DNA from: Eledone cirrhosa
Taxonomy: Eukaryota
Length of the DNA stretch: 64,000 nt
Direction: 5' to 3'
NCBI GenBank assembly: GCA_964016885.1
Contig: OZ024753.1
Location: forward strand, 45,508,001 to 45,572,000
The position numbers and the translations under genes are program-made. The number at the start of each line of letters is the position of its first letter. The stretch's first letter is position 1. The notes beneath the pieces were generated by a model. That model did not search any database. It had not been told where the DNA came from and saw only the letters and a list, made by a program, of their open reading frames with translations. Of the stretch, positions 12,197 through 12,297 are shown piece by piece.

Positions 12197-12296
12197 GAAG
12201 TGGTTACACAACAGTTAGTTCACCATACCGAGAACAATTGTTGCACCTTAGCGGATCCTCAGCTCGGTATGGTGAACTAACTGTTGTGTAACCACT

Positions 12297-12297
<1 letters not shown>
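12197..12297 (-). ncRNA. Hammerhead-like core enclosed by a perfect 35-bp inverted repeat
   Basis: Arms 12197-12231 and 12263-12297 are exact reverse complements. The minus-strand loop reads CTGAGGA-tccgctaaggt-GCAAC-AATT-GTT. Confidence 0.7.

Follow-up and report, generated by a model that had tools for sequence, protein, structure and literature searches.

Inverted, 5'-truncated copies with a tail on one side only are a described layout of Penelope-like elements (PLEs), with published tails of 30-40 bp (PMC8557442). Palindromes of 18 bp and, near-perfect, 38 bp at pLTR 5' ends have been read as products of self-priming (Arkhipova 2013, PMC3846280). The literature already covers inverted arms, tails and self-priming, and it treats the origin of inverted PLE ends and the purpose of the hammerheads as open questions (PMC8557442). 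Hammerheads are given for 25 PLE families of the Hydra clade (PMC8557442 File S2): helices I and III are short, 14 of the 25 carry a CUGANGA-U...U-GAA core with U·U at the foot of helix II, and cleavage follows a U in nine. Nearly all Hydra families, including one from Octopus, have (TA)n as their target (PMC8557442 File S1). With a purified Penelope protein, both strands of the target were nicked and extended, with starts at two sites within the RNA that delimit the tail; insertion was normal for ribozyme mutants, and RNA ends at the cut site were not seen (PMC11167929).

Here, we describe a short insert within a 64,000-nt stretch of DNA (the window). With EN+ PLE insertions it shares the 5' inverted piece, the one-ended tail, the hammerhead near the 3' end and the microsatellite target, whereas it differs from those described in its size of 167 bp, a junction inside helix I, a 67-nt tail and in that no coding sequence was seen (PMC3846280; Craig 2021, PMC8557442).

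The insert and its hammerhead core

The insert (12131-12297, 167 bp) lies between a (TA)14 run at 12103-12130 and a second TA run at 12298-12342 (array 12297-12342), likely the two halves of the target microsatellite. It contains no open reading frame, and no second copy was found in the 64,000 nt. Self-comparison of the window revealed exact inverted arms of 35 bp each at 12198-12232 and 12263-12297, flanking a 30-nt loop (12233-12262). An earlier note on this DNA had started the feature at 12197, one base too early, and had given the loop 31 nt. Its description of exact arms between TA runs holds for the arms, but only the right one contacts TA, the left being separated from the left TA run by 67 unique bases. 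Folding of the hairpin gave a z-score of -11.3, and none of 200 shuffles was equally stable. None of the mapped contigs spans the whole insert stretch and the window copy is thus not read-confirmed.

On the minus strand, the loop follows the order of a minimal hammerhead core, as had been proposed, and its register could be confirmed position by position: CUGAGGA (12262-12256), U, a CC/GG helix II with a 5-nt loop, U, GCAAC (12244-12240), the palindrome ACAAUUGU and GUU (12235-12233). Position 2.1 falls at 12263, C3-A9 at 12262-12256, G12-A15.1 at 12244-12241 with a C at position 13, U16.1 at 12234 and N17 at 12233, while the arms halt exactly at C3 and resume exactly after N17. Cleavage is predicted after GUU, between 12233 and 12232, which lies 102 nt from the outer element end. 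Helix II is only 2 bp long and the self-duplex energy of helix III is -6.4 kcal/mol. In a shuffling test that was defined after the motif had been seen, 1,194 of 2,000,000 shuffled loops contained a CUGANGA start on either strand, and 39 additionally held a GAAA-like box and the helix III pairs.

The window copy departs from the hammerhead consensus by carrying C instead of A13 at 12243. Changes at A13 abolish hammerhead cleavage, and the ribozyme of this copy is predicted to be inactive through A13C. A comparison with Rfam, put forward earlier as a check, did not recover the core: scanning the window copy with its A13C yielded no hammerhead family among 46 matches (E<=10) in 11800-12700, and the whole window held no match at gathering score. 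The matches obtained were of the hairpin-driven miRNA type, far under the gathering score.

A repeat family with an intact core and a short native helix I

Four of 17 listed public runs (X1, X2, X5 and X11), which carry different organism codes, were mapped onto 12121-12306 at 80% likeness. X11 gave no reads, whereas matching contigs numbered 4,799 in X1 and 14 each in X2 and X5. The predicted repeat family does exist; it is young and abundant and consists of tiny insertions with two sharp termini. At 12243, the family letter restores GAAAC, with depths of 603844 out of 604576 in X1, 78.9 out of 78.9 in X2 and 267.5 out of 267.5 in X5. Since GAAAC is intact in 99.9% of the family depth, as the earlier note had anticipated for the consensus, A13C is private to the window copy. 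Position 12243 is the only majority difference among those listed. The other listed core change concerns N7 (12258), a free position which varies in 20% of X1 depth, and no variants of at least 5% are listed for the U's at the foot of helix II (12255 and 12245). The family consensus has the CUGANGA and GAAA boxes, A15.1-U16.1 and NUH, and its helix I closes directly on C3 and N17. By these sequence boxes, the majority core would be a type I hammerhead ribozyme, in which the G10.1-C11.1 pair at the foot of helix II is absent and U·U found instead.

Among the loose ends listed, 36 contigs in X1 and one in X2 depart from the window sequence after 12266, and another X2 contig does so after 12271. 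Read by eye, they give a native helix I in which a 2x2 loop separates two stretches of 4 bp, complementary at 8 of 10 positions; a subfamily of 46 contigs among the pieces listed has a loop II longer by 1 nt and a helix I of 5 bp. Because family contigs diverge from the window beyond 12266, the 35-bp helix is specific to this copy. The reading of helix I as a perfect 35-bp palindrome is correct for the window copy but not for the family, whose native helix I is as short as predicted. The insert is therefore one very short, mutated member of a repeat family that is abundant, and the 35-bp helix is an inversion private to this copy and not the ribozyme of the family. On the minus strand, the left arm (12198-12232) is native sequence 3' of the predicted cut, comprising the 3' strand of helix I and downstream bases. 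The 5' strand of the native 4-bp helix I (12263-12266, minus strand) provides microhomology at the inversion junction, beyond which an inverted copy of 12198-12228 (12267-12297, plus strand) stands in place of the native upstream sequence.

Two termini recur in the family. The outer one is a cluster at 12131-12139, with loose ends, among those listed, before 12133 (22 contigs), 12137 (30 contigs) and 12139. The inner cluster lies at 12195-12198. Listed loose ends turn to TA there in 27 X1 contigs, all before 12195, and in two X5 contigs, one each before 12196 and 12197; these TA-adjacent ends may stem from other inverted arms and not from direct tail-less copies. An upward step in depth begins at 12198 in X1, X2 and X5. 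A fall in depth across the core was also considered as a sign of truncation and was dropped because of a similar ramp at the left edge. The outer end of the inverted arm, where it joins TA, coincides with the inner family terminus, and the tail (12131-12197, minus strand), which is family sequence in X1, X2 and X5, remains at the left end only. At 67 nt it exceeds the published length. A sister subfamily (28 X1 contigs with a loose end behind 12196) has the same 67-nt tail and diverges exactly at the inner terminus, which suggests that the tail may be a separable module.

Probable Penelope-like identity and neighbouring elements

We consider it very probable that the repeat family is Penelope-like, a reading that rests on non-coding features; none of the 103 peptides of the window had a Pfam match to a reverse transcriptase or endonuclease. 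The family copies are dispersed and 5'-truncated with an inverted 5' piece (X1 gave 4,799 contigs, with 10 joints that are inversions), the two recurrent 3' termini amount to an optional one-ended tail as in EN+ PLEs, though a longer one than published, and a type I hammerhead sequence lies near the 3' end. Together with the (TA)n target and the U·U-footed core, the latter compared with Hydra-clade families only, these features suggest that the stump is likely the 3' end of a Hydra-type Penelope-like retroelement, the clade being a lean. The core shares with the listed Hydra-clade hammerheads the CUGANGA-U...U-GAA arrangement, a palindromic helix III of like length, a short helix I, a cut after U and the (TA)n target, but its helix II has 2 bp compared with 3-5 bp in the U·U ribozymes of that clade (Craig 2021, PMC8557442 File S2), and its sequence differs from that of Octopus Hydra-1_Obim (PMC8557442).

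The minimal hammerheads of metazoan PLEs and non-LTR retrozymes are likewise of type I, with a helix I of 4-5 bp and a palindromic helix III suited to dimers; in contrast to those, the core found here is without the conserved G10.1-C11.1, and the window copy is single and not part of a tandem array (Cervera and de la Pena 2014, PMC4209133; bioRxiv 10.64898/2026.07.22.740005). Non-LTR retrozymes consist of head-to-tail units that each bear a hammerhead; the window holds a single copy, and the mapped stretch is too short to show a unit length. Two short motifs occurred only in unrelated contexts in the supplement of PMC8557442, in which line breaks can hide matches, and a metagenome scan with the arm motif gave no matches. 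The same scan with a degenerate core returned two near-identical loci, which were without helix I or the family tail and were taken as chance. The family is apparently unlisted.

The window contains several further elements. A second PLE-like insertion lies between TA runs at 35205-35796 and has a hammerhead core at 35618 (plus strand) with a long helix II. An inverted copy of 125 bp (35205-35329, 97.6%) runs through the core of this insertion with its junction outside the hammerhead; further partial repeats occupy 35340-35384, and one end only has a tail, of about 74-83 nt. Further hammerhead-like cores are located at 3613, 5648 and 56911 (plus strand) and at 28667 and 48137 (minus strand), and probably represent what is left of several PLE families. 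A microsatellite follows the cores at 3613, 5648 and 56911 at a distance of 50-230 nt, and that at 35618 at a short distance too. Directly to the right of the insert, 12344-12604 is insert-like, with exact 41-bp arms at 12502-12542 and 12564-12604, the right arm against TA, a 21-nt loop without a hammerhead core and a layout oriented as in 12131-12297. A simple-repeat palindrome of 248 bp (62759-63006, 96% self-complementary) is centred on a switch from (AAT)n to (ATT)n and has no hammerhead core. An element of 78 bp beside TA (48742-48819) has 15-bp terminal inverted repeats and is presumably a Tc1/mariner-type miniature element. An interspersed short repeat, present at 12988-13100, 13196-13304 and about ten other places with 74-97% identity between copies, resembles an octopus SINE. 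Judged by a repeat that it holds, the window looks cephalopod. Further, an imperfect self-inverted stretch is found at 12827-12986, and an open frame at 10606-10962 (plus strand) gave no Pfam match; its end is similar to a nuclease region at the C-terminus of some non-LTR retrotransposons.

Origin of the inverted arm

We favour, at about an even chance, an explanation in which the inverted arm derives from a second, separately primed cDNA that was joined at helix I, the stump being likely of a Hydra-type PLE. The nuclease of the element would nick both strands of the TA target. One of the ends would prime reverse transcription at the outer RNA start near 12131 and copy the tail, the arm and the core before halting in helix I, while the other would prime at the inner start at 12198 and be extended by some 31-35 nt in the direction of the ribozyme. 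Both cDNAs would then anneal by their ends via the 4-bp complement of helix I, with repair filling in. These enzymatic steps, like the Penelope identity and the clade, are inferred. The two-cDNA explanation accounts for both ends of the arm together, the outer as the inner terminus of the family and the inner as helix I. In twin priming of L1, two target strands prime two cDNAs which are joined by microhomology, resulting in a 5' inversion. Compared with L1, the second start here is a recurrent family site, and the pieces overlap and would thus result in an inverted duplication.

Eleven joints were read in X1, each from one contig, of which one is a plain deletion and ten are inversions. Inversion junctions differ between copies, consistent with the variable extensions that the earlier note had predicted. 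For three of the ten (12189>12273, 12191/12240 and 12198/12250), the inverted piece does not fall within the direct one; the opposite-strand orientation of the last two is our own reading, and a deletion that came later could produce the appearance of all three. Six fit both the two-cDNA explanation and a fold-back of one strand, five having been computed as contained and 12201>12269 having been added on reading, and 12199>12271 was assigned to neither. In the joint 12201>12269, the 34 intervening letters fold into a hairpin whose turn lies at about 12231 and whose two arms carry mirrored variant letters, and the joint 12229/12266 turns at the same helix I position as the window copy with other joining letters.

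The main competitor, which we regard as possible though less likely, is self-priming by fold-back, as the earlier note had proposed. Here, a single cDNA would halt in helix I, its 3' end would pair on itself and be extended to 12198, and resolution by a nuclease would join it to TA. Self-priming has been proposed for inverted PLE junctions (PMC3846280) and nuclease resolution for the tail (PMC8557442). The junction does lie inside helix I, where native complementarity extends over the 8 of 10 positions, and the six compatible joints include the hairpin and the turn at 12229/12266. This step is, however, not singled out by the data. The outer end of the arm sits at a recurrent terminus and not at a random point, and ending it there, at 12198, would require a separate event. 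Inverted pieces not contained in the direct piece could not be made by fold-back on a nascent strand, so that three of the ten joints, as read, are not such products. Further, the insertion at 35205-35796 has its inversion junction outside its own hammerhead, and helix I is thus not required for such inversions.

Alternatively, a plain truncated copy may have been corrected from the helix I quasi-palindrome by template switching during host replication or repair beside TA. The window does hold palindromes seemingly unrelated to hammerheads (e.g. 62759-63006 and 12502-12604), but this reading is improbable as it leaves the arm ending at the inner family terminus unexplained. Nor does arm identity need a late event: the window copy differs from the family majority at 1 of 136 positions, and at that divergence two 31-nt arms stay identical with a probability of about 0.63. 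That the palindrome is an assembly artefact, a local fold-back beside the TA run, would agree with the lack of a listed contig spanning the whole stretch and with run X11 being without reads. We judge this very improbable, since the two ends of the arm coincide with biologically marked positions of the family (helix I and the inner terminus) and another contig inverts at this helix I position too, with joining letters of its own. The perfect arms and the flanking TA would also fit a miniature DNA transposon whose terminal inverted repeats measure 35 bp, or a family with a native 35-bp helix I. This is the least credible of the readings considered here, given that the contigs departing after 12266 mark the right arm as non-native. 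Junctions also differ between copies, and the left arm lies within the element, at a distance of 67 nt from its end; a miniature element with fixed terminal inverted repeats is largely refuted by the non-native right and internal left arms.

Returning to two separately primed cDNAs, the ribozyme might itself set the junction: the second cDNA would run off a 5' end made by cleavage, and helix I microhomology would close the insertion. We consider this addition unlikely. Among the ten inverted pieces in X1, eight have their end 3-10 nt to the 3' side of the predicted cut, and that of the window copy ends 0-4 nt from it. Under a uniform null this gives p values of 0.0002-0.003, which are biased by detectability against the reference and by short cDNAs being commoner. 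In the literature we searched, which had most subscription papers outside its range, no report was found that links the inversion junction of a PLE with helix I or that explains PLE insertions by twin priming.

Taken by itself, the window copy is a dead stump whose architecture has been described before. The family to which it belongs is good material for deciding between twin priming and fold-back and for deciding whether junctions track the cut site. If the ribozyme does set the junction, genomic copies would record cleavage in vivo, and the hammerheads of Penelope elements would gain a role in integration.
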